A stretch of 64,000 nucleotides of DNA from Eubacteriales bacterium. GTDB taxonomy: Bacteria; Bacillota; Clostridia; Oscillospirales; CAG-272. The number at the start of each line of letters is the position of its first letter. Positions within the stretch are counted from its first letter, which is position 1. A program made the translations under genes and the position numbers. The stretch lies in assembly GCA_045589435.1 (NCBI GenBank), contig JAZNPB010000140.1, positions 1,428 through 65,427 on the forward strand, given 5' to 3'. The notes beneath the pieces are model-generated. The model saw nothing but the letters and a program-made list of their open reading frames with translations. It ran no database searches and was not told where the DNA came from. Shown here in pieces: positions 21,733-48,097 of this stretch.

Positions 21733-21763
21733 AGAGGCTTCAGATGAAGCCTCTTTTCTTTTT
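21733..21763 (-). terminator. bidirectional intrinsic terminator ending the giant-gene operon
   Basis: AGAGGCTTC-AGAT-GAAGCCTCT with T-runs on both strands. Confidence 0.65.
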
Positions 21764-21802: not shown

Positions 21803-22189
21803 TTAAGCAGGACGGAACAGCTTTTGCGCAATTTCTCTTAAGAATCCTAAAACATCCAGATCGTATATCGTGATCACGCTATGGGCAATAAACAGACATA
21901 TTGCTATAACGGACAGTATGATAAGTACCTTTTGCCAGGTCTTAAGAATACGTCTTGAACCGTTGGGGTTAATGGTAGGCTTCCAGTCGTTAGGAGAGTA
22001 TCCCATTGTGTATCTACGGTAAGAAGCACTACGGTCGCCCGTGGCTTGAGCGTACTTTTTCATAAGACGCTCAAGCTTACGGTTAACTTCCAATCTCTGC
22101 TTTTCAAGCTTTTCAACCTCATCTCGTCTCGCGTTAATCATGTTAGAGGACGAAAGGTTTGAATCTTTATACTTTTTTAATTGTTTCAT
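21803..22189 (-). CDS. small C-terminally anchored coiled-coil protein (128 aa)
   Basis: TAAGGAGG RBS overlaps the giant gene stop (15-nt gap). Basic helical N-terminal part, one TM (VLIILSVIAICLFIAHSVITIY) and a 25-aa tail. Confidence 0.6.
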   Translation of the reverse strand: MKQLKKYKDSNLSSSNMINARRDEVEKLEKQRLEVNRKLERLMKKYAQATGDRSASYRRYTMGYSPNDWKPTINPNGSRRILKTWQKVLIILSVIAICLFIAHSVITIYDLDVLGFLREIAQKLFRPA

Positions 22190-22204
22190 ATTAACGCCTC
22201 CTTA

Positions 22205-25200
22205 TTACATTAACATAGATTTGATCTGGTCGATATAGGGTTTTACCATTGGATAGATCTTTTCATATACGCCATGTATCATGGTGAAGAGTTCATCTCC
22301 AAGAACAAGATATGCAGCGAGCAATACACCTGCACCGAGAAGTGCCACAAGACCTGCGATAGCAATGAAGTCGTGAGATGCATCAGGACCGTAGTAGTCG
22401 TTGAGAATTGCTCTCTTTCTACGTCTAATCTCTCTATCGATAAGCTTGTTGTTTCTACGAGCTTCCTTCATATCTCTCTTGATCTGTGAAGTTTCAGCAA
22501 TGCTGTTGCGCTCTTTTCTCAGTCTGTACTTGCAAAGGTCGATAGTTGCAAGTGCCTCAACCTTCGAGTCAAGCAAGCTGTTGAAGATATGGATCTTCTT
22601 TGCTCTGCCCTCGCCGAAGCCGGGAACAGTACGTTTAAGAGCGTCTGCCTTAGCCTTAAGCTTTCTTGCATGCTTCTTAGCAGCAGATACCTTGATATCA
22701 CGCCACTTTTCGCTATCAGAAACACCCGCGACGTCGCCAAGAGGTCCGCTGTAGATCGCATTAAGCTTGGAGTTAAGTTCATCTCTCTTCTTAAGCAGAT
22801 CGCTTACCTCGTAGATAATGCTGTTTACGCGCTTCTTCTTTGTATTATTATCGCCGTAAGGAGCGAGGTTGGTATCAGTTCTGAGAACTCTGTAATAACG
22901 CTTGTTATCGAAGCTCTCGAACTTGAGTGCCTTTGCCTTTTCCTTCTTAAGTGCTCTGAGTTTACGCTTGATAAATGCTTTTCTCTTATAGTTGTGAATG
23001 CTGTTCTTCGCAAACTTATAAGACATTATTTCTCTTTCACTCTCGAGAAGTGCCATCTCAAACTTGTAACGGTTTTCGATCAATGAAAGGTCATTCAGAT
23101 CCTCTTCATCGCATCTGTTAAGAAGCTTGATATCTGCTCGGTAACGATTTTCCTGATGGATACGGTTATCTTTCTTCTTTCTGCGTTTGCCCTTTCCTTC
23201 ATCTTTCTTAGGTTTATCGTTAGTGTCTTCGTTCTTCTTGTCACGTTTCTTGCCTTCGTGCTTCTTATCGCGAACTTTCTTTTCTTTCTTTGTTCTTCGC
23301 TTGTTGTCTTTCTCAGGCAATGCCTCGTTAGTTTCCGTATAGGTAATTCTCGTGAGATGCTCATATGCCTCACCAGCAAGAACTCTCTTAACAATACTCT
23401 TATCCGCAAGAGGAATATTGGAGTTTGTCATCTTGTTGTACTCTTTGACATAATCATTGTAGCATTTAATTTCTCTTGCAAGGATCTCTGCATTGGTTCT
23501 TGCGAGTTCCATAGCTTTAGAATAAACACAAACATTGATTCGCTCAATATAATTCTCACAGATTAAGCACTGATTATTAATCAACGCAATATGAGCTTTA
23601 ACCTTATCAGATGCCGATGTGTAAGAATCTCTCTTCTTCTTTGCATAGCTACGATCGAATTTGAGACGATTGATTTCTTTCTCTGACTCTTGGAGATGAC
23701 GAGTCATACCTCTGCCTGCAAGCACACCCATATTGCCCTTCTTGTACGGATCAATAAGAACGTCTACGATAGGCATATCGCCACGGATAACAATCTCAGT
23801 TCCATCATATGGTATAATGTTGTCCTTGAGCTTGTTTTTCACACCGCTTTCAACCTGGATATACATCTCGCTGCCGATTTCCTCATATACGAGAGGACGC
23901 TCGGGAATCTTATACTTATCCTTATCGATTATGTACTCGCTGTCGATCTCCTCGTAAACAAGAGGCTGTTCAGGCATCTTATACTTATCAGAATCAATAA
24001 TATGTGCACTATCAATCTCTTCGTACGGAAGAAGCTTATCATCGCTGAAGGTCTTATGTTCTGCTGCGCCAACCTTATGGGTCTTATCATGTCTTTCAGC
24101 AACATTGAACTTGCCCTTGCGCTTCTTACCGAAGACGGTTACGTACTCAGGTTCGCGATCTTCATCTTCCTCAACCTCGGGAATCTCTTCCGTGATCTTG
24201 TAAGAATTCTTGTTCTTTGCGGACTTAGTAGCCTTAGTCTTTGTGCCGTGTACAACTTCTTCATCAGGAATTGCGATAGGCTCAAATTCTTCTTCGTCCT
24301 CAATTTCAGCTGCCTTAGGATTAGGTGTTTCTAAGATCTTATAGCTTGTGTATGCAGCAGACTTATCAACGGGTTCTTCTACTGCCACGTCGGAATCGGG
24401 AGCAAGAACTGTGATCTCATCATCACCGAACGGTGCATCAGGATCAATAGGTGTAAGCTCTTCAAATTCTCCGGGCTGCTCATCAATAGTTCTGACGTTA
24501 AGGCTTTCAAGGAGTCTGTAAGATTTTGCCTTAGGAGCTTCAAGAACTTTGAAGTCGTCAGAAATTTCAGAAGTTACGGGAGTTTCCTCTGCGATAGCAG
24601 ATTCTTCCTCTGCAACAACCTCTGCCTTAGGCTCAATATCAGGACCGTGGTAGATAACGATAGGCTCGTCATCGATCACGTCTTCTGTGGAATCTTCCAC
24701 AGGATTTTCTCTTGCATCAATAACCTTTCTGCGAGACTCATCTATTACAATACCACGCTTTTCAGCCACAGGCTCGTCGGGAAGAACTGTTACGATCTCG
24801 TTATCATATACAACCTCTGGCTCTGCCTCAGATTCCTCTTCCTTAGCGGAGATAACCTTTGGAGCAGTTTCAACAAGAACGTATGTGTTGTTAGCCTTAG
24901 GTGCAGTGATAACTCTGGTTGCGGAGATGATAGTTTCGGAATCTTTAAGCTCGGATACAACCCTTGCAGGTTCATCAGCGATTTCTTCAACATCATCAAC
25001 AACTGTAACAACCTCGTCGCCTGTATGATCGGGAGCGTCGATTGTGAACATGTTGGATACTGCTTCTTCTGCAGAAGCTTCAGGCTCTGCCTTTCCGCCA
25101 ATAACAACGGTCTTGTTGCTATCCTCGGAGAGAACGTAGCCGGTAGCCTTAACAGTCTCTGTGGGTTCTTCTACTACTGCTGCGCTATGTTCTGTTGTTT

Positions 25201-28200
25201 CAACAACTTCCTCAGCAGGAACTACCTGCTCGATAACAACTTCCTCTGCAGCTGCAGCGGAAATAACCTTAGTCTTATTAGAGTCTTCTGTAAGAATGTA
25301 TCCTGTATAGGTCTTTTCAGGTTCGGTTTCAGGAGCTTCGGAAACTTCTTCTACAGTCTCTACTTCATCGGGAAGAACTGTTACGATTTCCTCACCGGTG
25401 TGAAGAACCTCATCAACAGCGTCTTCCTTAACAGGAGTTTCTCTGAACTTCTCTGTGATTGTGTATTCGCCGTTTGCCTTTGGAGCTACAACAAGCTTTT
25501 CTTCAATAGGAGCATCTTCCATTGCTACTGCAGGAATGATAAGCTCGCTATCCTCATGAGACTTAACTGCATAGTCAAGCTCAAATCTTGCTTCGATAAC
25601 CTTTGTCTTGGAAGGGTCGATAGAAAGCTTATAGCCACCCTTATCGATCTCGGTTACAGGCTCTGCCGCAAACTTCTTCGCAGAATCGGGCTCCTCTGTA
25701 ATTACGAACGCGCCTTCAGCAGTCTTTTCGGGAGCTGCCTTCTTGGTCTTTTCAGCTGCTTTCTTAACCTTTTCAGGTACAGCCTTCTTAGCCTTCTTGG
25801 AAGTTGCCTTCTCCTCTGTAGGCTCGTCGTCGGAAACAACGGTTACGATCTCTTCGCCAACGTGAAGAATTTCATCTTCAACTGCAGCGGGAGCTTCAGG
25901 CTTAGAAACCTTTCTGATTTCTTCTGTAATTGTGTATTTGCTGTTAGCCTTGGGAGCTTCAACCTTTGTAACGGTTGTCTGTTCGGGCTCTGTAGTAGCA
26001 GCTCTCTCTACGATAACCTTTGCAGAGGACTTATCCTCGGTGATAACGCGCTTTGCCTCGTGTACAACGATCGTTCCAATGCTATCGTAATCAGACTTTT
26101 CAGTCTTTTCAGCAACTTCAACGTCGCTTGTAAGAATAGCGTAGGAATCTTCCTCCACAGGTTCGCTGTGAACTGCATTTACGGATTCAGGAGTGATAAC
26201 GGATACGTCATCAGCCTCTGTAAGGAATCCGTCTTCCTCATCAAGAATCTTGCCGGGCTCGCCTCTCTGTGCTGTCCATGTGGATTCTCTCTTTTCCTCA
26301 TGGATGGAGTATGCGCCCTTCTTTGCCTTGGTTGTCTTCTGGGCGCCGCCCTCGATAACCTTGGTAGATTCTTCGTCTATCACAACCTCGTGAGCCTCTT
26401 CGCCGGCTGGGATAGTCTTTGTATATTCATCAAGAACGAAAACTTCATGCTTTTCCTCGTCAGAAGGTGCCGCCTCAATTGTCTTGGTGCTGTCATCAAG
26501 AACAAGGATCTCGCGCTTTCCTTCTGCGTCGGATGCTGCATCGATAACCAACGACTGATTGTCAGCCTCAGTTATTTCATATACAGTAAGAGGCTTTTCT
26601 GCTTCAACAGGTGTTGCGGAAACGATCTTCTTACCGTTTTCGTCAGATGTTACTGTGTACTTAAGCTCGGATCTGCCTTCGATCTTCTTCGCCTGTGCAG
26701 GATCTACGGAAATCTTGTATGTTTCCTTTTCGATCTCGGTTACAGGTGCCGCCTCAAATCTCTTTGCAGAATCGGGCTCTTCGGTAATGGTATAGCCTGC
26801 CGCGGTCTTGGGTGCTTCTGCTACAGGAGCATCTTCAACTACGGTTACTATTTCATCACCTGTATGAAGAACTTCATCTTCGATAGCCGCAGGCTCGGAA
26901 GCCTTGGGAGCTACTCTGATTTCCTCTGTGATGGAGTATACGTTGTTACCCTTAGGTGCGCTGATTGTTTTAACCTCGGATACCTTTTCAGGAACCTTAG
27001 CTGTAACGATCTTTGTTGCATCCTCATCAACGGCAACAACCTTCTGTACGGGAGCTTCTTCAACAGTTGCTTCCTCTACAGGAGCATCCTCAACCACTGT
27101 TACGATCTCTTCACCTACGTGGAGAACCTCATCAGAAGCCTCGGGAGCTTCCTCAACAGCAGCTACGCCTGCAATAGTCTTTGCCTTAGTAGGATCAACT
27201 GTGAGTGTATAACCGCCCTTAAGAGGAGCTGCTTCAAAGGTCTTTGCAGAGCCGGGCTCTTCTGTAATAGCGTAGGTTCCTTCTGCCTTGGGAGATTCGG
27301 TAACCTCGGTTACGATCTCCTCTGCCTCGTGAGCTTCGGTATCGATAGCCTGATCTACTACGAAGCGGCGATCGTCTGCGATCTCATCAGCGGGAGCTTC
27401 AGATTCAACAGTCTGTCTGAGTTCTTCTGTGATTGTGTATGCGTTATTAGCCTTTGGAGCTTCAACAACTCTGGTTTCTCTCTTTTCGATAACCTTTGCA
27501 GAAGCCTCGTCAACTACAACGTCGCGCTTTTCAGCTGCAGGCTCATCTGCAAGTACGGTTACAACTTCCTCGCCTTCGTAAACGACGTCGTCTACTACTT
27601 CAGCTACAGCCTCAGGCTCTGCTGCCGCGGGAATATCTCTGATATCCTCGATAAGCATGTATGAGCCGTGCTTCTTGCCCTCGATAACCTTTGTTGCGGT
27701 TGTATCGATGGTGATTACCTTTTCAGGAGCAGCCTCGGAAACAACCTCCTCTGCGATTTCATCAACAGGACTTTCCTCTATGATCTCAGGAATAGTTCCG
27801 TCAAACTCAACTTCCATAAGCTGAGGCTCAACTGCTTCTTCTGTTACAGACTCAACAGTTTCCTCATCAGCTACAGCTTCTTCAGCTACAGGAGCAGATA
27901 CAGGTTTTCTGAATTCTTCGGTGATCGTGTAAACGCCGTATGCCTTTGGTGCGGAAACTACCTTGGTCTCGGTAGCCTCTGTTGCAACTTCGCTTACTTC
28001 GTCATCGAGTACCGCTACGGTTTCTTCTGCCTCGGAAGTAGACTCAACTACCTCAGGTGCTTCCTCTACCGTAGGAGCCTCTTGAGGAGCCATTTCTCTG
28101 ATCTCTTCAGTAATTATATATGAACCTTCAGCAGCAGGTGCCTTGATGGCTGCACCTTCAATAACCTTCGTTGCCTGGGTGTCAATTACTATCTTGCGAA

Positions 28201-34200: not shown

Positions 34201-37200
34201 CCTTTTCCTTCTCGGGCTCTGCTACGGTAGAAGCAGCAGTCTTTTCTCCTGCTTCCTTAGCTCTGATGTATTCAGCAATTTCTTTTGCATACATTGCCGC
34301 TTCTTTTGCATATTCAGCGGCAGTCTTGTCATCTGCGGGAGCAGATCCTTCATTGGTGTCAGTAACTACGGCAGCTACAACTGCAGAATCGTCTGCCTTT
34401 TCTTCCTCGGTCTTTGTGCCGGGAATTACCAATGCGGCGTCTGCATCCTCAAAGATGCGATTCATAAGAGGACGAAGCTTGGACTCGTCTTCCTCTGTGT
34501 GAGCTTTTGCCTTTTCGGGCTCTGCTGCAACAGCGGTAGCCTCAGTTTCGGACTCTTTTGTCTTTTCTGCTGTCTCGAGAGTCTTCTCGGAAACAGCCTT
34601 TTCGTCTGCAGGAGCAGATCCATCCTTAGTATCAGCAACTACGGCTGCTACAAGTGTGGAATCCTCTACCTTTTCTTCCTCGGCCTTTGTACCGGGGATG
34701 ATCATTGTAGCGTCGGCATCCTCAAAGATACGGTTCATGAATGGACGAAGCTTGGATTCATCTTCCTCTACACGTACCTTTCCTGCAGCATCGGCAGCAT
34801 TTTCTGCACCAAGAGCTGCACCGTCAGCTGAAATAGCAACGGCATCACCGGATCTGGATTCTATTACCTTGCCGTTTGCAACGCACTCACCATCTGTGAT
34901 TACGATAGTAACATCAGCATCCTCATGGATGATTGGAGCGCCGGAACGGATGATAACGGTTTCATCAGATTCAACACCTGCTGCACCGGCAGCTTCTCTT
35001 GCGAGAGCATCAGCCTTTGCAACTGCCTCACCTGCAGGAGATTCTGCATTCGCCTTTGCAAGGTCAACTGCTTCTTTTGCATATCTTGCAGCTTCTCTTG
35101 CGTATTCAGCAGCTTCCTTGGCATAGTCGGCAGCGGATTTTTCTGCATCATCAGCTTTTTCGTCTGCAGAAACAGCAGCTATTACTACGTCTGCATCGGA
35201 CTTATCGCCGGAATCTTTACCTGCGATTATCAATGCAGCATCTACATCCTCAAAGATGCGGTTCATGAGAGGACGGAGCTTGGACTCATCTTCCTCTGCA
35301 CGTGCCTTTCCTGCTGCACCTTCAGTTTCGGTAGCATTTTCTGCACCGTCTACTGTCTTGTCAGCTGCATCTGTATCAGCCGCGCTCTTCTGGCGATCAT
35401 CGGATACTGCAGCGGATTTTTCTTTATCATCAGCTACTGCATCACTTCTGTCATCAACGAAGAGAACAGCCTCTGTATCGGACTCGCCACCCTTTGCGGT
35501 TTCGAGACCTGGGATAATTTTTGTGGAATCGAAGTCTTCGAAGATATAAGGAGTGCTGGGACGAAGACCGGGAACTTCAGGATCTTCTTCCTCGTCTGCC
35601 TCATATTTTGATTTTGATCTTAATTTAGACTTCTTGGAAGCCTTGGATTTCTTGGAAGCCTTTTCATCTCTGCCTTCTTCAGAGGAATCAACGTCATCTG
35701 CGCCTTCAGCGGAAATAACCTTCTCTGTGCCATCGGCAGAAACAACTTCCTTTTCAGCCTCGCCGGAAAGAACCTTTTCTGTTCCGTCAGCTGTAACAAC
35801 TTCTCTTGCACCGTCAGCATCAGCGCGCTGTACGCCCTCTGCCGCCTCAACAACCTTTGCATCTCTCTTTTCAAGAGTATAGGTAGTAGCGCCGGTAGCG
35901 TCGCTCTTTTCAGCAGTAATAATTTCATCTGCAGGACGAGCCGATCCATCAGCTGCTACATGGCGGCCTTCTTCATCAACTCTTGCATAATGCTCTGCTG
36001 CTGCAGCTTCCTTTGCAGTCTTGATTGCTTCTTTTGCATATTCAGCAGCTTCTCTTGCAGAAACAGCAGCCTCTCTTGCGGATTCGGCAGCAGCTCTTGC
36101 GGATTCAGCAGCTTCTTTTGCGGATGCAACTACCTCGCTTGTGTCAGTAGAATCACCAACAGATCTTGCTGCATCGGTGGATTCAACAACACCGGAGGTC
36201 TTTGCCTTATCTGCAGATTCCGAAGCACCGGAACCTACTCTTGTATCATCAGATGCTACAGAAGCTACAACAAGAGCATCCATACCATCTTTCTTATCAT
36301 CAGCAACGTCAACCTTGTTGATGATCTTTGTAGAATCAATATCCTCAAAGATGCGTGAAAGGATAGGACGAATGTTTGCTTCATCCTCTACGTCTGTGTC
36401 GGCAGATGTCTTTACAACCTTTCTGCCATCAGCAGTCTTTTCTGCGCCTCTATCGGATTTAGCAGCTGCCTTGTCATCGGACTTTCCGGAGCCGTAAACT
36501 TTTTCAGCATCTGCGGATTCGCTGATAGCACCTGCCTTTGTAGACTTGATATGCTCGTCAGCTACGCTATCCTTACCGGATCTTTCTTTGTTATCTGCAT
36601 CAACGTCGCGAACTCTTGCAACGTGGTAATCGTAATCGTCACTTGCAGTGCCGGGCCATGGAGCAAGATCATCAGAGATGTCAGTTTCAACAACGGGTGC
36701 CTCTTTCGCACCGGAGATAACAAGCTCGGAATCGGTGTATTCAGCTATATTGGTAGCGATCTGGCGTTTTTCGCCCTTTACGGCATCCTTGCTTGATCTT
36801 CTTCTATTGTCAGCTGCCTTATCAGCGCTATCCTGAGGTCTACCTTCAGATTCGCTGATCTTCTTTTCACCGGATTCAGCTGATGCGTCAGCACCGGCAG
36901 CTCTGTCCTCGGATCTTACATATCTTGCGGACTCTCCGGATGAATCTTTATGATCGGAAGACTTGGTTGCATACGCTTTTTCATCTGCGCTGGCAACGTC
37001 AACGTCAGCAATGCGGCCGTCTGCAGGTCTGCCCTGATCGTAATACTTTTCGTCAGCACCGGCAATTCTGCTGTCAGCGATGCGACCGTCTACAGGTCTG
37101 CCCGCATCATAAGTTCTACCCTCGGCACCGGCGATCTCTGCATCAGCAAGGCGACCTTCAGCGCCTCTACCGGAGCTATAGGTCTTTCCGTCAGCACCTG

Positions 37201-40200
37201 CAACCTCAACGTCGGATATGCGACCGTCTGCAGGTCTACCTGCATCGTAATATTTTTCATCAGCACCGGCAATTCTGCTGTCGGCAACACGGCCGTCTGC
37301 ATCTCTGCCGTACTCATAATATCTTTCATCAGCACCGGCAATTCTGCTATCGGCAACACGACCGTCTGCATCTCTGCCGTACTCATAGTATTTCTCGTCG
37401 GCACCGGCAATTCTGCTGTCGACAATGCGACCTTCTGCATCTCTGCCTGCCTCAGGAGCGTTTTTATCAACACGTACGTACTGTGTTTCTACGAGCTTGC
37501 CCTTGATGCTTGGATCAGTGTCAAGAACCTTGGAGTCTACGGGAACGATCTTGGTTTCTACAAGATAGCCCTTATCTGTCTTATGGGCAGACTTATCCTT
37601 GGTATCACGAGATTCAGCAGCACTGCCTGTGTATCTGGAGTCACGAGTGCCATCACCGGCGTATTCGCCTGCAACGCCATCGGATTCACCATGTCTCTTT
37701 GCACCGTCAACATGGATGCCTTCTGTTATCTCGATTCTTCCGCCTGCTTTGGAATCCTTTTCAGCAGATTTCTCTGTTCTGTCTGCAGACTCTCTTGCAG
37801 CATCGGCAGATTCGTCGGAAACGAAAGTACCGTCAACGTATTCACCTGCAGATCTATCTCTTCTTGCGTCGGATTCAGATGCGCGACCAACAGAATCAGC
37901 TGCTTCTCTGCCATCGGCAGTTTCTCTGCCGTCAACAGACTCGCCTGCGTATTCTGTATCTTTCGCGGATCTTGCACCCCTAGATGCATCGTCTGCAGTG
38001 GATTTTCTTGCTTTTGCGGTTGTCTTTTCTTCTCCGTCAGCTGTGAAGTCGTCGAAGTTAGTAACAGGTCTTGGCTTTCTGGAGTCAGCAGCGTCGCCGG
38101 ACTTATGGATTACAGTACCGTCTTCGTCGGAAGCTGCACTCTTATCACCGGAAGTTTCGTAAACGCCTCCAAAGGCATCTTCGGACGCATTCTTATCTAC
38201 GACAACAGAAGCTACAGACTGATCTGCATCTTCGCCATCTGTGGAGGATGTATCTGCGATAGGCTCTCTTGCGGTAGCATCTTCGATATTGGAGAATGGC
38301 TCTTCGATAGGCTCCGCGAGGTCGCCAGCCTGAGCTGTACCCTTTGCAGCAGAACCATCCTTTGCAGCAACCATCTGGTCAAGCTCGGATGCAACAACAA
38401 CAAGCTCATCAGAATCTTCGGAAGCATCTCTGCTTCTAACGTGAGCGAATGGATCAAAGTTAGCAACGTCATCCTTGTGCGTGCGGCTACCCTGTCCCTC
38501 ACCGGGAAGAGGAAGAATGAAGGAAGCATCAAATGCGCCGCCCTTACCGTCAGCAACGTATGTGTTATCCTCTTCACCATCTGCACCTATACCAATTGCA
38601 GGACGTACAGCATCAGCGCCGGCACCCTCGTAAGGAGCATCTTTCCATCCGTCGATGGTAACAGCAGCACCTTCGCTCTCTACGATGCGCGCGTTAAGAG
38701 GACGAAGAACCTTTTCGTCGCGAAGGATTTCTTCCTTATTATTAATAGTAGCATGCTGATCCGAGACATCTGCACCACTGCCGATTTCGTAGCCGTATTC
38801 TGCGGTCTGACGGCCCTGTTCTCTGCTCTGGGAATCGATATTGTATCCATCTCTTGCAGAACCGGAAATAACGCCGGGCTCTCCGGTAACGATAGTACCT
38901 GCAGCTGCAGGGATCTTCTTGGCAGAATCTGCCTCTTCAACAACTCGCTCGGAAATATCGCGCTTCGTTTCGGGAGCGTCGATAATGAACGTTGAAGGCT
39001 GTGCAGACTGAGCTGCCTGAGCCTGATCAACATTGGACATTGCAGGGATAAACATACCCTGCTGATTGATATAGGATGCAGGGAAGCAGATCATAGGCTC
39101 CTGAGGCTGCTGTGCCTGAGGTGCTACTGCGTTACGATCGGTTTCCGTGATCTTGTATGTGGATGTGGAGAGGATCTCCTGAGTATTTGCTGCCTGGGAA
39201 TCACCAATAACAACTACCTGACCCTGTTCAACACCTGTAGGACCTACAACCATAGGAGCTGCAGTGCTTACCGCGCCTGCTACAGGAACTGTTCCAAGAT
39301 CGTCGATAACAACTATACCTGCATCCTGAGGCTGTGCAGTACGTGTTTCCTTACCGAGCTGAACTATCTTTTCAGTTCCGCCCTCTTCGGTAACGATTGG
39401 CTTATCAAGCTTTGTAATATCATCAGAATCGGTAAACGTACCCTCTACCATGCCTGCGCCGTATCTTACGAGAGGAGGAAGCTTGGTCTTTCTGTTTTCA
39501 GCAAGATCCTTCGCGTAAGTATTATAAGCGCGCGGAAGGGTCTGACCTACTCTCTTTTCAACTTCGCGAGCGAGGTCATTATATACCTTGATTTCTTTGT
39601 TGATTCTGGAGGACAGACGTCTTGCCTTTGCAGTATCGCCTGTTCTGATAGCGTCGGTATAAGTATCGCCAAGAATAGCAATAACCTCACGCTGGTGGTT
39701 AAGGGCTGAAACGAGATGCTCTGTCTTCTGACCGTACTCGGTATTCTCAGCATTGCGCATCTGATCCTTGAAGTCGCCCTTATTCTCCTTGATAAGACGC
39801 TTGCTTTCTTCAAGTTTCTGGCGAAGCTCACGCTTGCTTCTTCTGAGCTCACGCTTGCTGATCTTATACTTCTTGCCCTTCTTGCCCTTGCCTGCTCTGC
39901 CGCCTACTGCAGCAACGCCGTCTTCATCGTTATCGATCTGGCTGACGTAGGAAAGAGGTGACTTCTTATCGCCGTCCTTTTCATCCTCGTAAAGGTCTTT
40001 TTCAAGGATCTGAGGAAGCTTCTGAATTTCTTTTCCTGCAAGAACGTCGTCAGGAAGAGTCGCAGACGCTCTTGTAATCTTATTGAGAGAATATTTTTCA
40101 AGCTTCTTTGCATAGCCGTTATACTTGTTAACGTCACGCTGAAGCTCTCTCTTACGAGAATCTGTATTTCTGCCAAGAGCTTTTGTAGCTGCAAGGCTTT

Positions 40201-42220
40201 CGGCGTCAAACTCAAGGATACTTCTCTGGAACTCTGCACAGTTGGTAAGAGCGTCCATCTTTTCTTCCTTGGTCTTTGCCAACTTGTATTTTCTATCAGC
40301 TTCGGCAAGCTTCTTCTTAAGGCTTCTTACAACCTTATCGTTATCTCTGATCTTTTTCTTGAGTCCGCTCTCGCCAAGTCCCGCAAGACCGGAAAGAAGA
40401 CCAAGAGCGCCAAGACCAGCCGCCTCGCCGATAGGCATACCGAGTACCTTGCCATCTTCATCACCGTAATTGTTGGTGATATAGGTATAGTTGTCGCCTG
40501 TACCTGCATAACCGTCAGCGCCTACAAGACCTTCGCCTCTGCCCTGATAGTTGATGATAAGCTCGGAATCGGGAATTTCTTCGATAATTCTGTTTGCTGC
40601 ACCGCGGTTAAGAACCTTGGATGCAGAACCGTCCTGGGAGATGCCGGTAATAGCAGTATCGTCGCCAAGCTCAGAGAACTCGCCATCCTCGCTGGTGAAG
40701 AACTTCATGTCATCGCCAACTACAGGAATACCGTCTTCTGCAACAGCAAACGTGGGGCTATCACTTGGAACGGTAAGCTCGTGATCTGCATCAACGTCAA
40801 TACCGTCAGCCGTAGCCTCAGTAATGGAATAACCACCTTCTCCTACCGCATCACCGGCAGCAGAGAGAGGAGTTTCGTTTATAGAGTAACCGCCGCGTCC
40901 TTCTTTGTCAGCAGCGAGGGTTTCATCATCAGTAAAGTAGCGGCCTGCTTCATCAGCGTCGGGGGAAACGCCGTCTTTAGCATCGCCAACAAATATTGTT
41001 TCAAGTTCGGGAGCATATTCTTCCTCAGGGGTTTCGGAATCTTCTGCCATATCAGACGCAGGGGAAACGTCCAATGTACCTAACTGTTCAGCCTTTCTAC
41101 GACGAAGTTCGTCAATATTCTCACGGAGAAGCTCTGCATTTTCTTCAAGGAGCTTTGCAATTGCGTCATCAATGCCCTCACCGTTAATGTTAACGATAGG
41201 TGCAACGACAGCAGGAGCTGACTTCTTTGCAACCGGCTTTTTAGGTATAGCTCGAGCTTTTTTAGGAGTTCTAACGGCTTTCTTCGGTTTTTTCTTTCTC
41301 TTCTTCTTTCTGGGAGCTACGACAGCAGCAGGTGCCGCGGGTGCCGGAGCTTCGAAGGAAGGCATAGCCATAGGCTCGGGCATAGGAGCAGGCTCGGGTT
41401 CGGGCGCAGGAGCAGGTTTCTCGTCTTCTGGGATCTCACCGTAGGTAATATTATCTACCTCGTAGGTAAGGATCATGCTCTCGGGCTCTTCCTCGGGCTC
41501 TTCTTCAGGATGCTCGTAGTCATATGTAAATGACATTCCGTCATCGGTTTTTTCGTCTTCTTCACCGTCAAGATTGTCAGGATCAATGGAGAGAACCATA
41601 TCAACAGGCTCATCAGCAGCGGTTTCCTCAACTGGAGCTTCCTCTGCAACAGGCTCGTCAGCAGGAGTTTCCTCAACTGGAGTTTCCTCTGCAACAGGCT
41701 CGTCAGTAGCGGTTTCCTCAACAGGAATTTCATTTTTTGCTTCTTCCATAGCCTTCTTCTCTGCAAGGCTCTTTTCAACCTTTTCGAGGAGGGCTGCGGC
41801 GTTTTCAGCTCTGCGTTTTGCCTCTTCCTTTTCCTTTCTGATCTCTTCCTCGATCGCTTCCTTGATTGCTCTTTCGCGATCTTCCTTCTCCTTGGCGATA
41901 GCGGCTTCTTTCTCAGCCTTCTTACGTCTTTGAGCAGGTGTCATAGGACGCTCTTCTGCATCTTTCTTAAGCTTCTGTCTGTAATTGTCAGCATAAGCGA
42001 AAGAATCTTGCTTCTGCTTTCTCAAGCGAGCTACCTGCTCCTCGCGAGTTTCGCCAGGATCACTGTTTCCGTCATCACTCTGACGTGGTTTGGCATCAGC
42101 GCCCGCGATGTCGACGTTATTTTCCCCTACGTCAACCACGGAATCAGGCGCGTTAGTCTCCGCTACAGAAGCTTCATTCTCTAAAGCCTCGGCAGTCGGA
42201 TTTTTTCTTTTCTCTGCCAT
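22205..42220 (-). CDS. giant (6,671 aa) hyper-acidic, repeat-rich, C-terminally membrane-anchored protein of unknown function
   Basis: 20,016 nt with no stop. GGGGGAA lies 7 nt upstream of the ATG. There is no N-terminal hydrophobic signal. The only TM (FIAIAGLVALLGAGVLLAAYLVLG) is about 30 aa from the C-terminus, after an Arg/Lys-rich stretch. It has multiple protein-level repeat families. The opposite-strand ORFs are Cys/Phe/Leu/Ser-rich shadows. Confidence 0.85.
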   Translation of the reverse strand: MAEKRKNPTAEALENEASVAETNAPDSVVDVGENNVDIAGADAKPRQSDDGNSDPGETREEQVARLRKQKQDSFAYADNYRQKLKKDAEERPMTPAQRRKKAEKEAAIAKEKEDRERAIKEAIEEEIRKEKEEAKRRAENAAALLEKVEKSLAEKKAMEEAKNEIPVEETATDEPVAEETPVEETPADEPVAEEAPVEETAADEPVDMVLSIDPDNLDGEEDEKTDDGMSFTYDYEHPEEEPEEEPESMILTYEVDNITYGEIPEDEKPAPAPEPEPAPMPEPMAMPSFEAPAPAAPAAVVAPRKKKRKKKPKKAVRTPKKARAIPKKPVAKKSAPAVVAPIVNINGEGIDDAIAKLLEENAELLRENIDELRRRKAEQLGTLDVSPASDMAEDSETPEEEYAPELETIFVGDAKDGVSPDADEAGRYFTDDETLAADKEGRGGYSINETPLSAAGDAVGEGGYSITEATADGIDVDADHELTVPSDSPTFAVAEDGIPVVGDDMKFFTSEDGEFSELGDDTAITGISQDGSASKVLNRGAANRIIEEIPDSELIINYQGRGEGLVGADGYAGTGDNYTYITNNYGDEDGKVLGMPIGEAAGLGALGLLSGLAGLGESGLKKKIRDNDKVVRSLKKKLAEADRKYKLAKTKEEKMDALTNCAEFQRSILEFDAESLAATKALGRNTDSRKRELQRDVNKYNGYAKKLEKYSLNKITRASATLPDDVLAGKEIQKLPQILEKDLYEDEKDGDKKSPLSYVSQIDNDEDGVAAVGGRAGKGKKGKKYKISKRELRRSKRELRQKLEESKRLIKENKGDFKDQMRNAENTEYGQKTEHLVSALNHQREVIAILGDTYTDAIRTGDTAKARRLSSRINKEIKVYNDLAREVEKRVGQTLPRAYNTYAKDLAENRKTKLPPLVRYGAGMVEGTFTDSDDITKLDKPIVTEEGGTEKIVQLGKETRTAQPQDAGIVVIDDLGTVPVAGAVSTAAPMVVGPTGVEQGQVVVIGDSQAANTQEILSTSTYKITETDRNAVAPQAQQPQEPMICFPASYINQQGMFIPAMSNVDQAQAAQSAQPSTFIIDAPETKRDISERVVEEADSAKKIPAAAGTIVTGEPGVISGSARDGYNIDSQSREQGRQTAEYGYEIGSGADVSDQHATINNKEEILRDEKVLRPLNARIVESEGAAVTIDGWKDAPYEGAGADAVRPAIGIGADGEEDNTYVADGKGGAFDASFILPLPGEGQGSRTHKDDVANFDPFAHVRSRDASEDSDELVVVASELDQMVAAKDGSAAKGTAQAGDLAEPIEEPFSNIEDATAREPIADTSSTDGEDADQSVASVVVDKNASEDAFGGVYETSGDKSAASDEDGTVIHKSGDAADSRKPRPVTNFDDFTADGEEKTTAKARKSTADDASRGARSAKDTEYAGESVDGRETADGREAADSVGRASESDARRDRSAGEYVDGTFVSDESADAARESADRTEKSAEKDSKAGGRIEITEGIHVDGAKRHGESDGVAGEYAGDGTRDSRYTGSAAESRDTKDKSAHKTDKGYLVETKIVPVDSKVLDTDPSIKGKLVETQYVRVDKNAPEAGRDAEGRIVDSRIAGADEKYYEYGRDADGRVADSRIAGADERYYEYGRDADGRVADSRIAGADEKYYDAGRPADGRISDVEVAGADGKTYSSGRGAEGRLADAEIAGAEGRTYDAGRPVDGRIADSRIAGADEKYYDQGRPADGRIADVDVASADEKAYATKSSDHKDSSGESARYVRSEDRAAGADASAESGEKKISESEGRPQDSADKAADNRRRSSKDAVKGEKRQIATNIAEYTDSELVISGAKEAPVVETDISDDLAPWPGTASDDYDYHVARVRDVDADNKERSGKDSVADEHIKSTKAGAISESADAEKVYGSGKSDDKAAAKSDRGAEKTADGRKVVKTSADTDVEDEANIRPILSRIFEDIDSTKIINKVDVADDKKDGMDALVVASVASDDTRVGSGASESADKAKTSGVVESTDAARSVGDSTDTSEVVASAKEAAESARAAAESAREAAVSAREAAEYAKEAIKTAKEAAAAEHYARVDEEGRHVAADGSARPADEIITAEKSDATGATTYTLEKRDAKVVEAAEGVQRADADGAREVVTADGTEKVLSGEAEKEVVSADGTEKVISAEGADDVDSSEEGRDEKASKKSKASKKSKLRSKSKYEADEEEDPEVPGLRPSTPYIFEDFDSTKIIPGLETAKGGESDTEAVLFVDDRSDAVADDKEKSAAVSDDRQKSAADTDAADKTVDGAENATETEGAAGKARAEEDESKLRPLMNRIFEDVDAALIIAGKDSGDKSDADVVIAAVSADEKADDAEKSAADYAKEAAEYAREAARYAKEAVDLAKANAESPAGEAVAKADALAREAAGAAGVESDETVIIRSGAPIIHEDADVTIVITDGECVANGKVIESRSGDAVAISADGAALGAENAADAAGKVRVEEDESKLRPFMNRIFEDADATMIIPGTKAEEEKVEDSTLVAAVVADTKDGSAPADEKAVSEKTLETAEKTKESETEATAVAAEPEKAKAHTEEDESKLRPLMNRIFEDADAALVIPGTKTEEEKADDSAVVAAVVTDTNEGSAPADDKTAAEYAKEAAMYAKEIAEYIRAKEAGEKTAASTVAEPEKEKASAEEDESAIRPLMNRIFEDADAALVIPGTKDEADGSVAAVVADVEADDKSVAEYAKEAAMYAKEAAEYAKEAARKDGVAPATDAEKADAAESDTLIMPNIPYIFENVDATTRVDGKGESTADAAQGAGEGTAAADSVVYGGQGRSGMNVNDAVSSTSAPYAGMGVDSPINYGAREDDSVKGIVSEKSRSSAQPEEEAKAQPQVQVPLTCPVYDLLKSLEGKQLVVTDKVAPKSAESASEPGHVEVFDNVTVTPPEKAAETTEEAKAPAEEPKAAPKEETKPLDEGAKLSRDETGPVIGEPVAPAEEKAPAASEEAETPKPVFEDDSIISVVDDEEFEEVLSRVVADNDVVHSSMFESVEPVEPASASADYLNSTESTTETTEYTEFIPFIYPRIYEDADSVRIISGIPEDTTKEELHQAIAEYLAARGIDIGETGVTIEEIADYVTSCDTFKDTVVTEICSYLRPRTPIIFEDVDSAKVIPGVVLEMEYEDAASVEMITPIDGEASEESPETESALSESAPLADGEGSHTEVRFINNNVGTTEESIESETDYYSYMPRIIEDHDIKTVIKTELPEVIEESAPTELLAIEDVVVAQADTKIGDEFVAAEGHVAKSAVAQAETVETSETDNVIGHIAATNIAHADIKDAGDVDSVEGRIAETNIARAESRVLETKDTIKGKIIETQIARADVADLGEVADVKAKLAEVSVASADEVTLGDAGSAEARLAEVKIAHAESKVLETKDTIKGKIIETQIARADVADLGEVASVDAKLAGVEIARADAADLGDADHVESKLADADLASADEVTLGDAGSAEARLAEVNIARAESKVLETKDTIKGKIIETQIARADVADLGEVASVDGKLAAVDVARADEKAFDAVVVDGRLATVDIARAESRVLETNDGIKGKIIETQIARADEKVFDEITPVEGRLADVYVASADGKTYDAGETVIGQLAEVEIAHAGEKAADDRETTIPKLATFTLASADEKTVSDTDAAVGHVAEASIAKADGKTYDAGEAAIGQLAAVQIARADDKSYEAVPLAEGQIAEAHIARASAKNVEDSDTVLPKLAKFTLAEAEEKEAIEVESEAKPLTTIDPNANVIPIIINPDDENPINAYVVTDASLINKEAEPVVVEEEGHRHIVENFEEMKSVKVDLPPETTAEEFMGYILDVDDVVPGEKDDVDTIPMGEAEEVSEVVAEPAEETAPEGDEAGEVSVVEDAPVEETPVEETPAEEPAPEAEETPAPKHSMGYAIYETPVEKAKDAADDVVVCDAPEVTPTDKPEPVRVDDEPVEEAPAEETAAKEPENVIIRAHKPAYTIVEAYKDAPVEEDPTVITKKSGYKIVESVSDGASSEESKPGAQRMNVNDLINYSARDYKFDSHLYVTYSYAGTTAEEVEKDPIINVVNATVKHNSGVTTVEVNELRRVLHKYGDKENFKLIVFVDIPAKVKAFNMAFDKAALTKLCETLEANGDTRAAISYKALKGNDLGEFKIDRKLASAIRSVYNGYQKHKFSAKCDINVYGANTRSQVSDFKDTDGNGHIYIAIPYDNKFIKFCKDIVSNINNPRITDEIRAIAYANIVKSMLGKHMSSVDAAKSQDSIIDRITSEHIYLVPISHLSIFVFASLGKEIEEENDAYYLVYEDGRRELICEIPSSIKQEIREIVVPEAPEEAAAEESVSEADAAEEIVTVVEDEAPAAVEAKVSKKAKGNGGYVITEDFSRSVPATVAEVAEEVAEEVAEAEEVLAAPVSAEAVEPGEVDVSDESTGEGYEDVSVEPPVRAAGEETVAEESVEEAPATESAPDEPVSEYATLTSDHQVEADKSDRPEYGDTIVITEKAEDSAEEEVVEAVAEPEIEKVVEAATTEEAPADETPDSEETVTDEVEETHAEPIETITKGYILTEKPDEAKKIAGMGNGESYVIVEHADSALKLAGVAEAPSEEVVHDVTEDIKETEERAEGTSDVVEVVDIAAPETVESTSDTESAPDASEAPAEEAPAAVRKIVIDTQATKVIEGAAIKAPAAEGSYIITEEIREMAPQEAPTVEEAPEVVESTSEAEETVAVLDDEVSEVATEATETKVVSAPKAYGVYTITEEFRKPVSAPVAEEAVADEETVESVTEEAVEPQLMEVEFDGTIPEIIEESPVDEIAEEVVSEAAPEKVITIDTTATKVIEGKKHGSYMLIEDIRDIPAAAEPEAVAEVVDDVVYEGEEVVTVLADEPAAEKRDVVVDEASAKVIEKRETRVVEAPKANNAYTITEELRQTVESEAPADEIADDRRFVVDQAIDTEAHEAEEIVTEVTESPKAEGTYAITEEPGSAKTFEAAPLKGGYTLTVDPTKAKTIAGVAAVEEAPEASDEVLHVGEEIVTVVEDAPVEEATVEEAPVQKVVAVDEDATKIVTAKVPEKVSEVKTISAPKGNNVYSITEEIRVAPKASEPAAIEDEVLHTGDEIVTVVEDAPVAEAPKTAAGYTITEEPDSAKRFEAAPVTEIEKETYKISVDPAQAKKIEGRSELKYTVTSDENGKKIVSATPVEAEKPLTVYEITEADNQSLVIDAASDAEGKREILVLDDSTKTIEAAPSDEEKHEVFVLDEYTKTIPAGEEAHEVVIDEESTKVIEGGAQKTTKAKKGAYSIHEEKRESTWTAQRGEPGKILDEEDGFLTEADDVSVITPESVNAVHSEPVEEDSYAILTSDVEVAEKTEKSDYDSIGTIVVHEAKRVITEDKSSAKVIVERAATTEPEQTTVTKVEAPKANSKYTITEEIRKVSKPEAPAAVEDEILHVGEEIVTVVSDDEPTEEKATSKKAKKAVPEKVKKAAEKTKKAAPEKTAEGAFVITEEPDSAKKFAAEPVTEIDKGGYKLSIDPSKTKVIEARFELDYAVKSHEDSELIIPAVAMEDAPIEEKLVVAPKANGEYTITEKFRETPVKEDAVDEVLHTGEEIVTVLPDEVETVEEVSEAPETEPEKTYTGYILTEDSNKTKVISAAAAEEVVIEQVVPAEEVVETTEHSAAVVEEPTETVKATGYVLSEDSNKTVVIGGKAEPEASAEEAVSNMFTIDAPDHTGDEVVTVVDDVEEIADEPARVVSELKDSETIISATRVITAPKANNTYVLVETAPKVISAKEEESEAEPEVVYDNEIVTVLPDEPVAEKRGIVIDESRRKVIDARENPVEDSTEDVIDDEPIVIYHGPDIEPKAEVVAEEESAIAEETPVTSEISDDFKVLEAPKAKSYRLLESLNVRTIDEQPGEFEELTPIDPDAPFGDDEITVLAPDSDVAVEEPVDKSAAYTSYKILETPNPKAAEIEDEEEFEPIAIPDEEVVHGTKTKATKSAKNKNSYKITEEIPEVEEDEDREPEYVTVFGKKRKGKFNVAERHDKTHKVGAAEHKTFSDDKLLPYEEIDSAHIIDSDKYKMPEQPLVYEEIDSEYIIDKDKYKIPERPLVYEEIGSEMYIQVESGVKNKLKDNIIPYDGTEIVIRGDMPIVDVLIDPYKKGNMGVLAGRGMTRHLQESEKEINRLKFDRSYAKKKRDSYTSASDKVKAHIALINNQCLICENYIERINVCVYSKAMELARTNAEILAREIKCYNDYVKEYNKMTNSNIPLADKSIVKRVLAGEAYEHLTRITYTETNEALPEKDNKRRTKKEKKVRDKKHEGKKRDKKNEDTNDKPKKDEGKGKRRKKKDNRIHQENRYRADIKLLNRCDEEDLNDLSLIENRYKFEMALLESEREIMSYKFAKNSIHNYKRKAFIKRKLRALKKEKAKALKFESFDNKRYYRVLRTDTNLAPYGDNNTKKKRVNSIIYEVSDLLKKRDELNSKLNAIYSGPLGDVAGVSDSEKWRDIKVSAAKKHARKLKAKADALKRTVPGFGEGRAKKIHIFNSLLDSKVEALATIDLCKYRLRKERNSIAETSQIKRDMKEARRNNKLIDREIRRRKRAILNDYYGPDASHDFIAIAGLVALLGAGVLLAAYLVLGDELFTMIHGVYEKIYPMVKPYIDQIKSMLM

Positions 42221-42265
42221 GTTAAATTCCCCCTGTTTTACTTATATATTTTTATTAATAACACA

Positions 42266-43108
42266 TTAAAACTCCGATCCGCTGATCGCCGCACCGATTG
42301 CGGTAGCAAAGCCGGACCGTTCGGGTATTACGAAGTTAACTCCGTAACCCAAGGTATTAAATTCTCGGAATTTTCGTTTGCATTCTGCAAGGATGGTAAC
42401 GTTTCCTGTGAGGATTATGTCCTTCACCCCTCTGGATCTTGCAGCGAATATGGAAACCATTCCAACCACCTCGTATACCAGATTCATAATTCCAAGAGCG
42501 ATATCACTTTTCTCTGCCGAGGAGGAGAGATTTGCAAAATTCGAAGCCGTAAGGTTTCTGCTAAGTTCCTCTAGAGCATCTCCGCGAACCAGATCCTTGA
42601 TCCTGAGGTCGATCTTATCAAGATTGCCTCCGTCAGCGAGCTCTGCTATATCGGAGATATTGTCCGAATTGAGCAACAGCTTTGAGAGCCCCATCAGCGT
42701 TCCTCCGCCAACCCCTGTTCCACCCAGGTATTCGTAAGCTCCGTCAGGCATCGTATGTACTATTGCAGTACCGGTACCCATACTGACTACGAGAGCATTA
42801 TCAAACCCCGATAAGTACGAGCCGCCTTTTGCGATGCATTGGAACTCCTCTACCCTATGGCAGTCCAGACCATAAATACCGCCGCTTATGTGCGAAGCGC
42901 CAACCCCCGTGATCATCACCTTGGAAATGTCCGAGAGCGAAAGCCGATTTTCATCGGTGAATCTTCCGAAAGCTCCGTAGGTAGCGGTGAGCGGATCGTT
43001 TGCCGTGATAACCATGGGCTCTATCCATTGTTTTTCACCACCGTTTTCGCAGAAGCCAATTATTTTCGTAGTGCTTCCACCGACGTCTATGCCTATAATC
43101 GTTTTCAT
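42266..43108 (-). CDS. coaW: type II pantothenate kinase (Fumble/CoaW-type)
   Basis: IGIDVGGSTTKIIGF phosphate-1 motif and GGTGVGGGTLMGLSKLL, typical of type II PanK. Confidence 0.75.
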   Translation of the reverse strand: MKTIIGIDVGGSTTKIIGFCENGGEKQWIEPMVITANDPLTATYGAFGRFTDENRLSLSDISKVMITGVGASHISGGIYGLDCHRVEEFQCIAKGGSYLSGFDNALVVSMGTGTAIVHTMPDGAYEYLGGTGVGGGTLMGLSKLLLNSDNISDIAELADGGNLDKIDLRIKDLVRGDALEELSRNLTASNFANLSSSAEKSDIALGIMNLVYEVVGMVSIFAARSRGVKDIILTGNVTILAECKRKFREFNTLGYGVNFVIPERSGFATAIGAAISGSEF

Positions 43109-43194
43109 GCGAGTACCTTCCTTTCGTAGTTTTCGTGAATCCAGCGCTTATAATATATATAATATTTTGCGCCCATATGCAAATATACAAAAAT

Positions 43195-43223
43195 ATTATA
43201 CCACATATTTCTTTAATGTGCAA
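43195..43223 (-). promoter_or_regulatory. sigma-70 type promoter upstream of coaW (candidate operon promoter)
   Basis: Minus strand: TTGCAC, 17 nt spacer, TATAAT with an extended -10 TG. Confidence 0.55.
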
Positions 43224-43457
43224 GTACTTTTTCATATTTTTTTCATTTTTTTCGCATTTTTTTATTAATTTTGCATTTTCCGACACACAATCCTGAAGAT
43301 AATGAGCAAAAAGATGATGAAAGTACGACATCTCATCATCCATAAGCTCAAAAAAACACCCGATTTTATCTTCCAAACGGAGAAATTACAAACAAATTCA
43401 CAGGCCAAATCAAAAATGCTATAATAATGATGTAGAAAAACGCAAAGGTGGTACGAT

Positions 43458-48092: not shown

Positions 48093-48097
48093 CAAGC

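Follow-up and report, generated by a model that had tools for sequence, protein, structure and literature searches.

The window analysed here comprises 64,000 nucleotides (nt) of a Eubacteriales bacterium (GTDB lineage Oscillospirales, CAG-272; assembly GCA_045589435.1, contig JAZNPB010000140.1, positions 1,428 to 65,427 of the forward strand). On its minus strand lies a gene of 20 kb, hereafter the giant gene, which is preceded by coaW and followed by a gene for a 128-amino-acid (aa) protein, hereafter the partner (Table 1). An earlier note, made from the sequence of the window, had described the product as an orphan, hyper-acidic protein anchored by a C-terminal transmembrane (TM) segment and encoded in one transcription unit with coaW and the small TM protein. 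The positions it had given for the polybasic patch, the non-repetitive island, the 45-nt and 15-nt intergenic gaps, the promoter and the terminator proved to be right.

Table 1. Features of the giant gene and its surroundings. Positions refer to the window; ORF, open reading frame; TRF, Tandem Repeats Finder; HMM i-E, independent E-value of a hidden Markov model.
Feature	Position	Strand	Remarks
Bidirectional terminator hairpin	21730..21757	both	12-bp, GC-containing, T runs on both strands
128-aa partner	21803..22189	minus	conserved N-terminal helix, G-D-R...A-P-N-D-W, own C-terminal TM
Giant ORF	22205..42220	minus	ATG start, 6,671 aa, 720 kDa, isoelectric point (pI) 4.5, net charge -659
C-terminal TM anchor, aa 6616-6640	22301..22375	minus	Kyte-Doolittle value 2.57; followed by a 31-aa tail
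Basic all-helical C-terminal domain, aa ~6346-6610	22391..23185	minus	alignments, 274-cluster profile, long helices in AlphaFold2
YN module 3, aa 6167-6290, membrane-proximal	23351..23722	minus	HMM i-E 1.9e-38
P-L-V-Y-E-E-I-D-S repeats, aa ~6040-6120	23861..24103	minus	before C-terminal domain; kept in P0001, P0002
E/P/A/V-rich acidic linkers and strand-like motifs, aa ~4370-6010	24191..29113	minus	motif scan
Island of ~300 aa, aa ~4040-4340	29201..30103	minus	non-repetitive, this genome only
23-aa array B, 20 copies, aa ~3304-3771	30908..32311	minus	TRF and anchor spacing
R-P-L-M-N-R-I-F-E-D-A-D-A-type modules and AEYAKEAA heptads, aa ~1960-2790	33851..36343	minus	TRF 21-nt period; collinear with L001
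23-aa array A, 7 copies, aa ~1595-1764	36929..37438	minus	TRF 69-nt period; anchors exactly 23 aa apart
YN modules 1 and 2, aa 618-736 and 795-912	39485..40369	minus	HMM i-E 8e-20 and 1e-17
Polybasic K/P/A-rich patch, aa 303-333	41222..41314	minus	conserved in P0010, P0011
N-terminal head, aa 1-170	41711..42220	minus	52-53% identity to P0010, P0011 over aa 21-97
coaW, type II pantothenate kinase, 280 aa	42266..43108	minus	Pfam Fumble, 1.8e-21; first gene of the unit
Sigma-70-like promoter-like site	43195..43222	minus	TGCACA-16-TATAAT, extended TG; pattern scan
FMN reductase, NADPH-dependent, 204 aa	43458..44072	plus	Pfam FMN_red, 4e-24

Translation of the window gave 6,671 codons with 0 internal stops for the giant ORF. 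A stop-free frame of 20 kb cannot have arisen by chance, and collinear protein-level homologues are present in other assemblies. We conclude that the giant gene is real and that it forms one uninterrupted ORF of 20,016 nt, as had been claimed, with both ends matching full-length orthologues. The start is credible because the N-terminus MAEKRKNP... aligns with MADERKIP... of the two full-length orthologues P0010 and P0011. The ATG is preceded, at a distance of 8 nt, by the Shine-Dalgarno sequence GGGGG, in line with the plausible translation start proposed before. The most frequent residues are A (13.6%), E (13.3%), D (8.8%), V (8.7%), and K (7.9%). With 1,476 D and E residues against 817 K and R residues, the protein carries a charge of about -0.10 per residue and is the most acidic of its family; its net charge and pI bear out the hyper-acidity noted earlier.

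The designation as an orphan, by contrast, has to be abandoned. A search with the C-terminal 560 aa returned six relatives among 5.8 billion clustered proteins, and a profile of these relatives retrieved 274 clusters (50% identity), 79 of them below 1e-30, from 1.84 billion representatives. Homology searching from the C-terminal 450 aa thus recovered a family of 274 clusters, to which the ends of the giant belong and which includes full-length orthologues of 2,687 aa (P0010) and 3,036 aa (P0011). In all matches listed, the matched region of ~450 aa constitutes the C-terminus, and the proteins are about 500 to 3,761 aa long. Typical members measure ~900-1,100 aa; the giant is the longest member found, by a wide margin. 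When one genome per GTDB species was scanned, the C-terminal domain was detected in 22 loci. All of these derive from metagenome-assembled genomes (MAGs) of yak, sheep, deer, and other herbivore guts, with the taxon labels Eubacteriales, Oscillospiraceae, Clostridia, and Ruminococcus sp.

To the databases, this family is nameless. The giant yielded no match beyond noise in Pfam (E<=1), NCBIfam, PADLOC, or PDB sequence searches (for its 23-aa arrays, see below), and Pfam or PADLOC searches with the partner and with between nine and twenty members of the family likewise gave noise only. Among the PDB sequences, neither the profile of the C-terminus nor the island, the first 1,000 aa, or the Y-x-I-T-E region had a significant match. 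Foldseek comparison of the AlphaFold2 model of the C-terminus with the PDB returned generic helical bundles only, none with an E-value below 1, and an exact look-up of the partner retrieved no record. Family members were called "hypothetical protein" in every source, and a literature search found no description of the family. The Pfam, NCBIfam, and PADLOC searches and the motif searches agree with the previous statement that the giant has no known enzymatic, adhesin, or cell-wall-anchor domain. No part of the giant or of the partner is covered by a described family, a described domain, or a solved structure. Judged by sequence, the family is undescribed, and it is new in the sense of unrecognised rather than mechanistically demonstrated.

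Typical members (P0053, P0066, P0056) start with an R/E/K-rich helical N-terminus, characterised by the motif A-Y-x-x-E-Y-R-Q-K-L, and continue with a variable charged middle, a module designated YN, a helical domain, and the TM segment. The YN module comprises ~120 aa and ends in ...Y-N-x4-E-Y-x3-T-G...A-G...P-I-P. The C-terminal helical domain is marked by the invariants R-Y-Y..D and L-x-x-R-x-x-x-N-x-x-L-x-x-x-Y-x-G. As a member of this family, the giant has the C-terminal domain, YN modules, and a gene for a partner with the P-N-D-W motif on its 3' side and coaW on its 5' side. The helix motif of its head, FAYADNYRQKL (aa 74-84), recurs in P0053, P0056, P0066, and the 2139-aa protein of locus L007. 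An HMM derived from the family alignment detected three YN copies in the giant; other members have between one and about seven. YN1 and YN2 lie about 5,250 residues from the membrane anchor; YN3, which AlphaFold2 modelled as a three-helix bundle with a predicted local distance difference test (pLDDT) score of 79-94, adjoins it. The 525-aa protein of locus L003 aligns to the N-terminal and the C-terminal YN copies alike.

P0010 and P0011 share with the giant the head, the polybasic patch, YN1-YN2 (44-49% identity), and the C-terminal region (47-48%); the stretch of aa 527-1034 is 49% identical to P0010. The middles of both orthologues are far shorter than that of the giant. A relative in L001 has at least 4,262 aa, is open near the contig end, and is collinear with aa ~2200-6670 of the giant, apart from one frameshift. 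Since orthologues with the same ends have shorter middles, the giant represents the extreme of a length-variable family. Lineage-specific repeat expansion between conserved ends accounts for a length range of ~0.5 to 6.7 kaa.

A split arrangement was observed in L007. There, a protein of ~2,100 aa (3204-9623) carries, besides the family head, about six copies of the YN module and, at aa ~1719-1897, three internal TM segments, and a soluble protein of 525 aa (9677-11254) contains two YN modules and the C-terminal domain, with no TM. The same division occurs in L003, L006, and L008-L025, together with a partner of 76-81 aa that lacks a TM.

The C-terminal TM segment, which is preceded by REIRRRKRAIL, is the sole strongly hydrophobic stretch of the giant; the next-best hydrophobic window reached a Kyte-Doolittle value of 1.51. 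Hydropathy and motif scans of the giant revealed no N-terminal hydrophobic segment and no twin-arginine (Tat RR), YSIRK, or LPXTG motif. Thus, neither a cleavable signal nor a cell-wall anchor was found, as the earlier note had maintained. The giant is predicted to belong to the class of tail-anchored proteins; it has a single TM in the last ~60 residues and no N-terminal signal. A TM within this distance of the C-terminus was present in 136 of 156 sequences, counting the listed family matches and the giant. For the 140 family members with a TM, the 15 aa in front of it contained on average 5.1 K and R residues vs 1.5 behind it. The excess lay on the N-terminal side in 126/140 members, and an N-terminal hydrophobic segment was found in 0/140. 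On the basis of this charge asymmetry, the positive-inside rule predicts that the bulk of the giant probably resides in the cytoplasm. The tail-anchored, N-in topology that had been proposed for the giant is thus backed by the statistics of the family.

A candidate second TM at aa 597-615 was rejected. Its Kyte-Doolittle value is 1.46, and the segment is hydrophobic in P0010 and not in P0011, so that it does not qualify as a conserved TM. The stretch (40376-40432, minus) is a glycine-zipper-like patch rich in G, A, and L, GLGALGLLSGLAGLG, followed by KKKIRDND and YN1. A role in peripheral membrane binding or in self-association is conceivable.

Turning to the transcription unit, coaW matched the NCBIfam equivalog PRK13317 with 236.3 bits at a cutoff of 234. 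It ends 45 nt upstream of the giant ORF, and the partner gene starts 15 nt downstream. The promoter-like site sits between coaW and the divergent FMN reductase gene; the divergent arrangement of the two genes is also seen in L028 and L029. An ORF of 142 aa at 43265..43693 (-) was dismissed as a member of the unit; it is spurious and overlaps the divergent FMN reductase gene.

The clade of the giant consists of the window, L001, L002, L004, L005, L028, and L029. In all loci of this clade, the partner has an added C-terminal TM. A partner adjoins the family protein on the 3' side in nearly every locus; outside the clade, it has 68-81 aa and no TM and is homologous to the N-terminal half of the 128-aa protein. 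The window, L028, and L029 have no CBS gene and show the order Wzy_C - FMN reductase (divergent) - coaW - big protein - partner. L001, L002, L004, and L005 keep the pair of giant and partner, and their contigs end before the coaW region. Within the available sequence of the clade, rimP and nusA were located in L002 only, about 8 kb downstream. The order in L006-L027 is mutS-like (MutS_V only) - coaW - CBS-pair - family protein(s) - small protein - rimP - nusA - ylxR - L7Ae - infB. The proposed unit of coaW, giant, and small TM protein is thus kept in L028 and L029 and occurs in a modified form in ~20 further species. Altogether, the series coaW - (CBS) - big protein - PNDW partner was traced across about 25 loci, usually just upstream of rimP-nusA-infB.

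Between its conserved ends, the giant contains repeats whose copies are 65-90% alike at the DNA level (TRF). Near the N-terminus, repeats of 15 and 45 nt occur in acidic linkers rich in P, E, V, and A. Array B has the consensus (A/V)(E/D)G(R/K)(L/I)A(E/D)VxIARADEKxY..., and arrays A and B make up one 23-aa family of 27 copies, with Ala11 and Ala13 in every copy and Gly3 in 20/27. The earlier note had listed at least five unrelated repeat systems; the repeats are real, but their unrelatedness was overstated, as the two 23-aa arrays are one family. Motif scans identified about nine acidic-aromatic modules resembling R-P-L-M-N-R-I-F-E-D-A-D-A and, between aa 3990 and 6010, 26 strand-like motifs of the type Y-x-I-T-E-E / S-A-K-V-I-E-G. 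The Y-x-I-T-E-E linker region is common to P0008, P0010, P0011, L004, and L005 at 30-45% identity, and the repeat blocks are collinear with those of L001, L004, and L005 at 31-43% protein identity.

The best PDB matches of array B were engineered OspA 23-aa hairpin repeats (2fkj, 2fkg, 2hkd), aligned in register with an E-value of 8e-8. Array A matched best to 2fkj, an OspA hairpin-repeat construct, with an E-value of 9e-5. The in-register motif common to the arrays and the OspA repeats is K/R-G..(L/I).E..I.RAD. As a control, the 23 positions were reordered at random in the same way in every unit, so that period and composition were kept. The score of the real alignment with OspA was reached in 0/1000 permutations for array B and in 4/1000 for array A. 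The 23-aa arrays may form hairpin ribbons, which we treat as a lead rather than as homology since the OspA match is not significant for a single unit.

The island, in turn, has no detectable homologue among the 5.8 billion proteins, the PDB, the related loci, or the JGI metagenomes. It is missing from the L001 orthologue and is the least conserved part of the giant. Single-sequence AlphaFold2 modelling gave a mixed alpha/beta structure with a pLDDT below 50. Because no relative was found and the L001 orthologue lacks it, the island is, on present comparisons, a globular-looking, lineage-specific insertion and not the functional core. It had been taken for the only non-repetitive part of the giant, which is incorrect in that the conserved N- and C-terminal regions are non-repetitive too. 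The GC content of the island (0.42) equals the genome background, and that of the acidic repeats is 0.49.

With moderate confidence, we regard the giant as an extreme-length member of an undescribed, tail-anchored family facing the cytoplasm, which probably serves as a long tether or scaffold. In such an arrangement, the TM would be inserted post-translationally, and the basic C-terminal domain, YN3, and the partner would form a membrane-proximal base. The middle would act as a self-repelling polyanionic tether or spacer, built from acidic P/E/V/A-rich linkers and helical heptad runs. Its 23-aa and Y-x-I-T-E hairpin-like arrays may fold as flat single-layer beta-sheet ribbons, and part of it may be disordered. 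The tether would keep the head, with YN1, YN2, and a polybasic patch reminiscent of histone tails, tens to hundreds of nanometres off the membrane. The repeated short acidic-aromatic motifs could turn it into a multivalent docking scaffold; as its target, the head might bind nucleic acid, a further YN module, or some other protein.

A bolder version, in which we place little trust, likens the giant to titin: a tail-anchored intracellular ruler or spring that would reach up to micrometres and whose species-specific repeat number would set a distance inside the cell. Free-standing single-layer beta-sheet ribbons, made of the 23-aa and Y-x-I-T-E hairpin arrays, would then alternate with PEVK-like acidic entropic springs and link the membrane, through YN3, the C-terminal domain, and the partner, to a distant target of YN1-YN2 and the polybasic patch, e.g., the nucleoid. 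The hosts of such a device would be uncultured, possibly large-celled, gut Clostridia.

Several observations weigh against the tether or scaffold reading. In a sister subclade (L003, L006-L025), the family protein is split and has three internal TM segments; therefore, tail-anchoring is not universal in the family. Strong acidity is limited to the clade of the giant, most other members being near-neutral, and a polyanionic character can thus not be the core function of the family. The loci compared are fairly close kin, with rimP and nusA copies 69-78% and 76-82% identical, respectively, to those of L026, which makes gene order weak evidence for a coupling to coaW. Every homologue stems from a MAG or an unbinned assembly, and all are unnamed hypothetical proteins. 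The AlphaFold2 model of the last 560 aa, computed from a 7-sequence alignment, is all-helical with a moderate mean pLDDT of 58, and a single-sequence model of array B and the island (aa 3290-4489) was uninformative, with a pLDDT of 30.6. A single 23-aa unit compared with OspA gave an E-value of 0.37, the significance being reached by summing over repeats. Role and localisation of the giant are inferred from its sequence. The membrane-tethered polyanionic scaffold or spacer, which the earlier note had offered as a guess, nevertheless appears to be the best reading, with the same proviso.

Among the alternatives, a sporulation-specific structural protein, which would sit at the mother-cell face of the forespore or in the mother-cell membrane and organise coat or engulfment structures, would amount to a more specific form of the cytoplasmic scaffold. 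Spore coat assembly is known to involve acidic morphogenetic proteins, SpoVID among them. A Peptidase_S55 (SpoIVB-type) gene is located near the unit in the closest relatives L001, L002, and L028, and L028 has a faint SipL-like match nearby. In the window, however, no sporulation gene adjoins the unit, the fixed neighbours in the wider family are mutS-like, coaW, CBS, and rimP-nusA-infB, and the promoter-like site 5' of coaW resembles a sigma-70/sigma-A site. We therefore consider a sporulation role unlikely. It is also rather improbable that the charge as such is what matters, i.e., that the giant, as a polyanion tethered to the membrane, serves to buffer or concentrate cations or polyamines, to keep the nucleoid or ribosomes out of a membrane zone, or to mimic nucleic acid. 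The record net charge within the family and the contrast between an acidic middle and basic patches at both ends would suit such a role, and a connection to RNA or ribosomes might be suspected from the adjacency of rimP-nusA-infB in the wider family. But most members are near-neutral, with middles of K/E/R-rich helices, and the giant keeps position-specific motifs (Ala11, Ala13, and Gly3 of the 23-aa units; Y-x-I-T-E) that composition does not demand.

The majority of the giant bacterial proteins described so far are extracellular (bioRxiv 10.1101/2023.11.21.568195), and the only solved structures resembling the 23-aa repeats belong to OspA, a surface lipoprotein. Both facts would fit an adhesin-like surface giant that leaves the cell by a route not yet recognised and stays attached through its C-terminal TM, as proteins of the Ebh type do. 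We rate this as highly improbable: the giant carries no signal peptide, Tat, YSIRK, or LPXTG motif, none of the 140 family members has an N-terminal hydrophobic segment, the charge asymmetry puts the N-terminal side of the TM inside, Pfam searches revealed neither an adhesin domain nor a FIVAR, SLH, or cell-wall-binding domain, and the helical N-terminal regions, rich in R, E, and K, are of a type usual in cytoplasmic proteins. We give next to no credence to the remaining explanation, an assembly artefact or a decaying repeat expansion without selection. The frame runs for 20 kb without a stop and matches full-length orthologues at its ends, its repeat blocks are collinear with those of L001, L004, and L005, and the repeats are diverged, unlike the identical copies behind assembly collapse. 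What speaks for this explanation is the origin of the data: all related loci come from MAGs or unbinned metagenome contigs, and the assembly analysed here is probably of the metagenome type as well; the L001 orthologue carries a frameshift, and gene callers mis-called antisense ORFs there. Furthermore, no independent assembly of the giant's species was found by exact look-up or in JGI metagenome scans, including one with YN1-YN2.

The tether or scaffold reading has its best analogue in HubP/FimV, which may resemble the giant in how it works and would be analogous, not homologous. HubP and FimV, polar landmark proteins of Vibrio and Pseudomonas, are acidic, repeat-rich, membrane-anchored cytoplasmic hubs (PMC12918733). 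They are large and have an extensive acidic cytoplasmic region built from repeats that serves as a multivalent hub (PMC12918733, PMC8789113), as envisaged for the giant. They differ in having a periplasmic LysM-like domain, an N-proximal TM, and C-terminal FimV TPR, none of which the giant possesses. The giant is 4-5 times longer, is anchored at its extreme C-terminus, and shows no sequence relationship to them. By topology, it can be grouped with bacterial tail-anchored proteins such as DjlC, Flk, and TssL of E. coli, which have a C-terminal TM, no signal, and a cytoplasmic bulk (PMC6794478, PMC3087755, PMC3426401). What is shared here is a topological class, not membership of a homologous family. 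The known bacterial tail-anchored proteins are much smaller, and we know of no described bacterial example of 6.6-kaa size. EzrA, a spectrin-like, membrane-anchored division regulator of Firmicutes, exposes repeated three-helix bundles to the cytoplasm. It has an N-terminal anchor, about 560 aa, and no acidic repeat region, and it was not returned by the sequence searches or by Foldseek with the C-terminal model (no E-value below 1).

Very long, repeat-rich ORFs also encode the Ebh/SraP-type and Omnitrophota giants, and Ebh ends in a TM anchor. These giants have signal peptides, adhesin or secretion domains, or many TMs (bioRxiv 10.1101/2023.11.21.568195), whereas our giant has none of these. 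The hallmarks of Sec/sortase adhesins (YSIRK/KxYKxGKxW signal, LPXTG, FIVAR, GA, SRR) are absent from it. The architecture hence differs from that of the secreted Firmicute giants, a contrast already drawn in the earlier note. The central sheet of OspA and its engineered repeats (2fkj, 2fkg, 2hkd) have a 23-residue period and a charged, core-less composition, as do the arrays; evidence of common ancestry was not obtained, and AlphaFold2 did not produce this fold from the single sequence. A free-standing single-layer beta-sheet that serves as a binding platform in the cytoplasm is exemplified by the TCP/G-box domain of CPAP (PMC3776556).

Described giant bacterial proteins are almost all secreted adhesins, toxins, multi-TM predatory proteins, or assembly-line enzymes. 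A non-enzymatic, tail-anchored protein of 720 kDa facing the cytoplasm would, if true, constitute a different class. It would also be a very large tail-anchored substrate, raising the question of how a TM is targeted after ~6,600 residues have been made. With the family come a repeated domain that is new, the YN module, and a partner fixed in the operon. Between species, the length of the family protein varies more than ten-fold, as could be imagined for a tether or a ruler. Provided that the 23-aa arrays fold as suspected, they would represent a natural, very long single-layer beta-sheet, of which few others are known (such as OspA and CPAP). Large repeat proteins of hypothetical status are no rarity among MAGs.

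The giant gene is overlapped by long antisense ORFs on the plus strand, namely 24647-27664 (1,005 aa), 29345-33001 (1,218 aa), and 36950-38995 (681 aa), a by-product of GAA/GCA/GAT-rich codon usage. The public gene calls on L001 picked such antisense ORFs (2320-4971 and 7562-8806, both on the minus strand) over the real frame. Genes of this family are therefore probably mis-annotated in MAGs; as gene callers fragment or mis-strand them, their frequency in MAGs is probably underestimated. The giant gene contains 889 Glu codons (520 GAA, 369 GAG). The window includes a pair of genes for tRNA-Met(CAT) and tRNA-Glu(TTC) at 48016-48172 (+) and a tRNA-Glu(CTC) gene at 1516-1590 (-). A connection of the two tRNA-Glu genes with the Glu-codon usage was rejected; their presence is probably a coincidence and nothing remarkable.

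The Wzy_C protein next to the FMN reductase gene (44231-47383, minus), which resembles O-antigen ligases, has 1,050 aa with two matched stretches. L028 has a single gene of 484 aa in its place and L029 a tandem of 486 and 471 aa; the protein of the window looks like a fusion of two tandem genes. In L026, the block of mutS-like - coaW - CBS - family protein is preceded, at a distance of a few kb, by a gene for a phage terminase large subunit (Terminase_6N) at 2911-4275 (-), and a prophage is apparently located next to this conserved block. The remaining genes of the window are ordinary for gut Clostridia; they serve the utilisation of rhamnose or encode glycoside hydrolases, ABC exporters, AraC regulators, a serine recombinase, and three tRNAs. 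The serine recombinase gene (Recombinase and Zn_ribbon_recom; 48-1292, plus) adjoins the tRNA-Glu(CTC) gene, and this site may be the edge of an integrated element. A gene for an Mrr-type restriction endonuclease is located at 15565-16158. The rhamnose/rhamnoside cluster (49253-58790) comprises genes for a class II aldolase, RhaA, an FGGY kinase, an AraC regulator, GH1, a GH78 alpha-L-rhamnosidase, and a transporter of the major facilitator superfamily, and it is unrelated to the giant.

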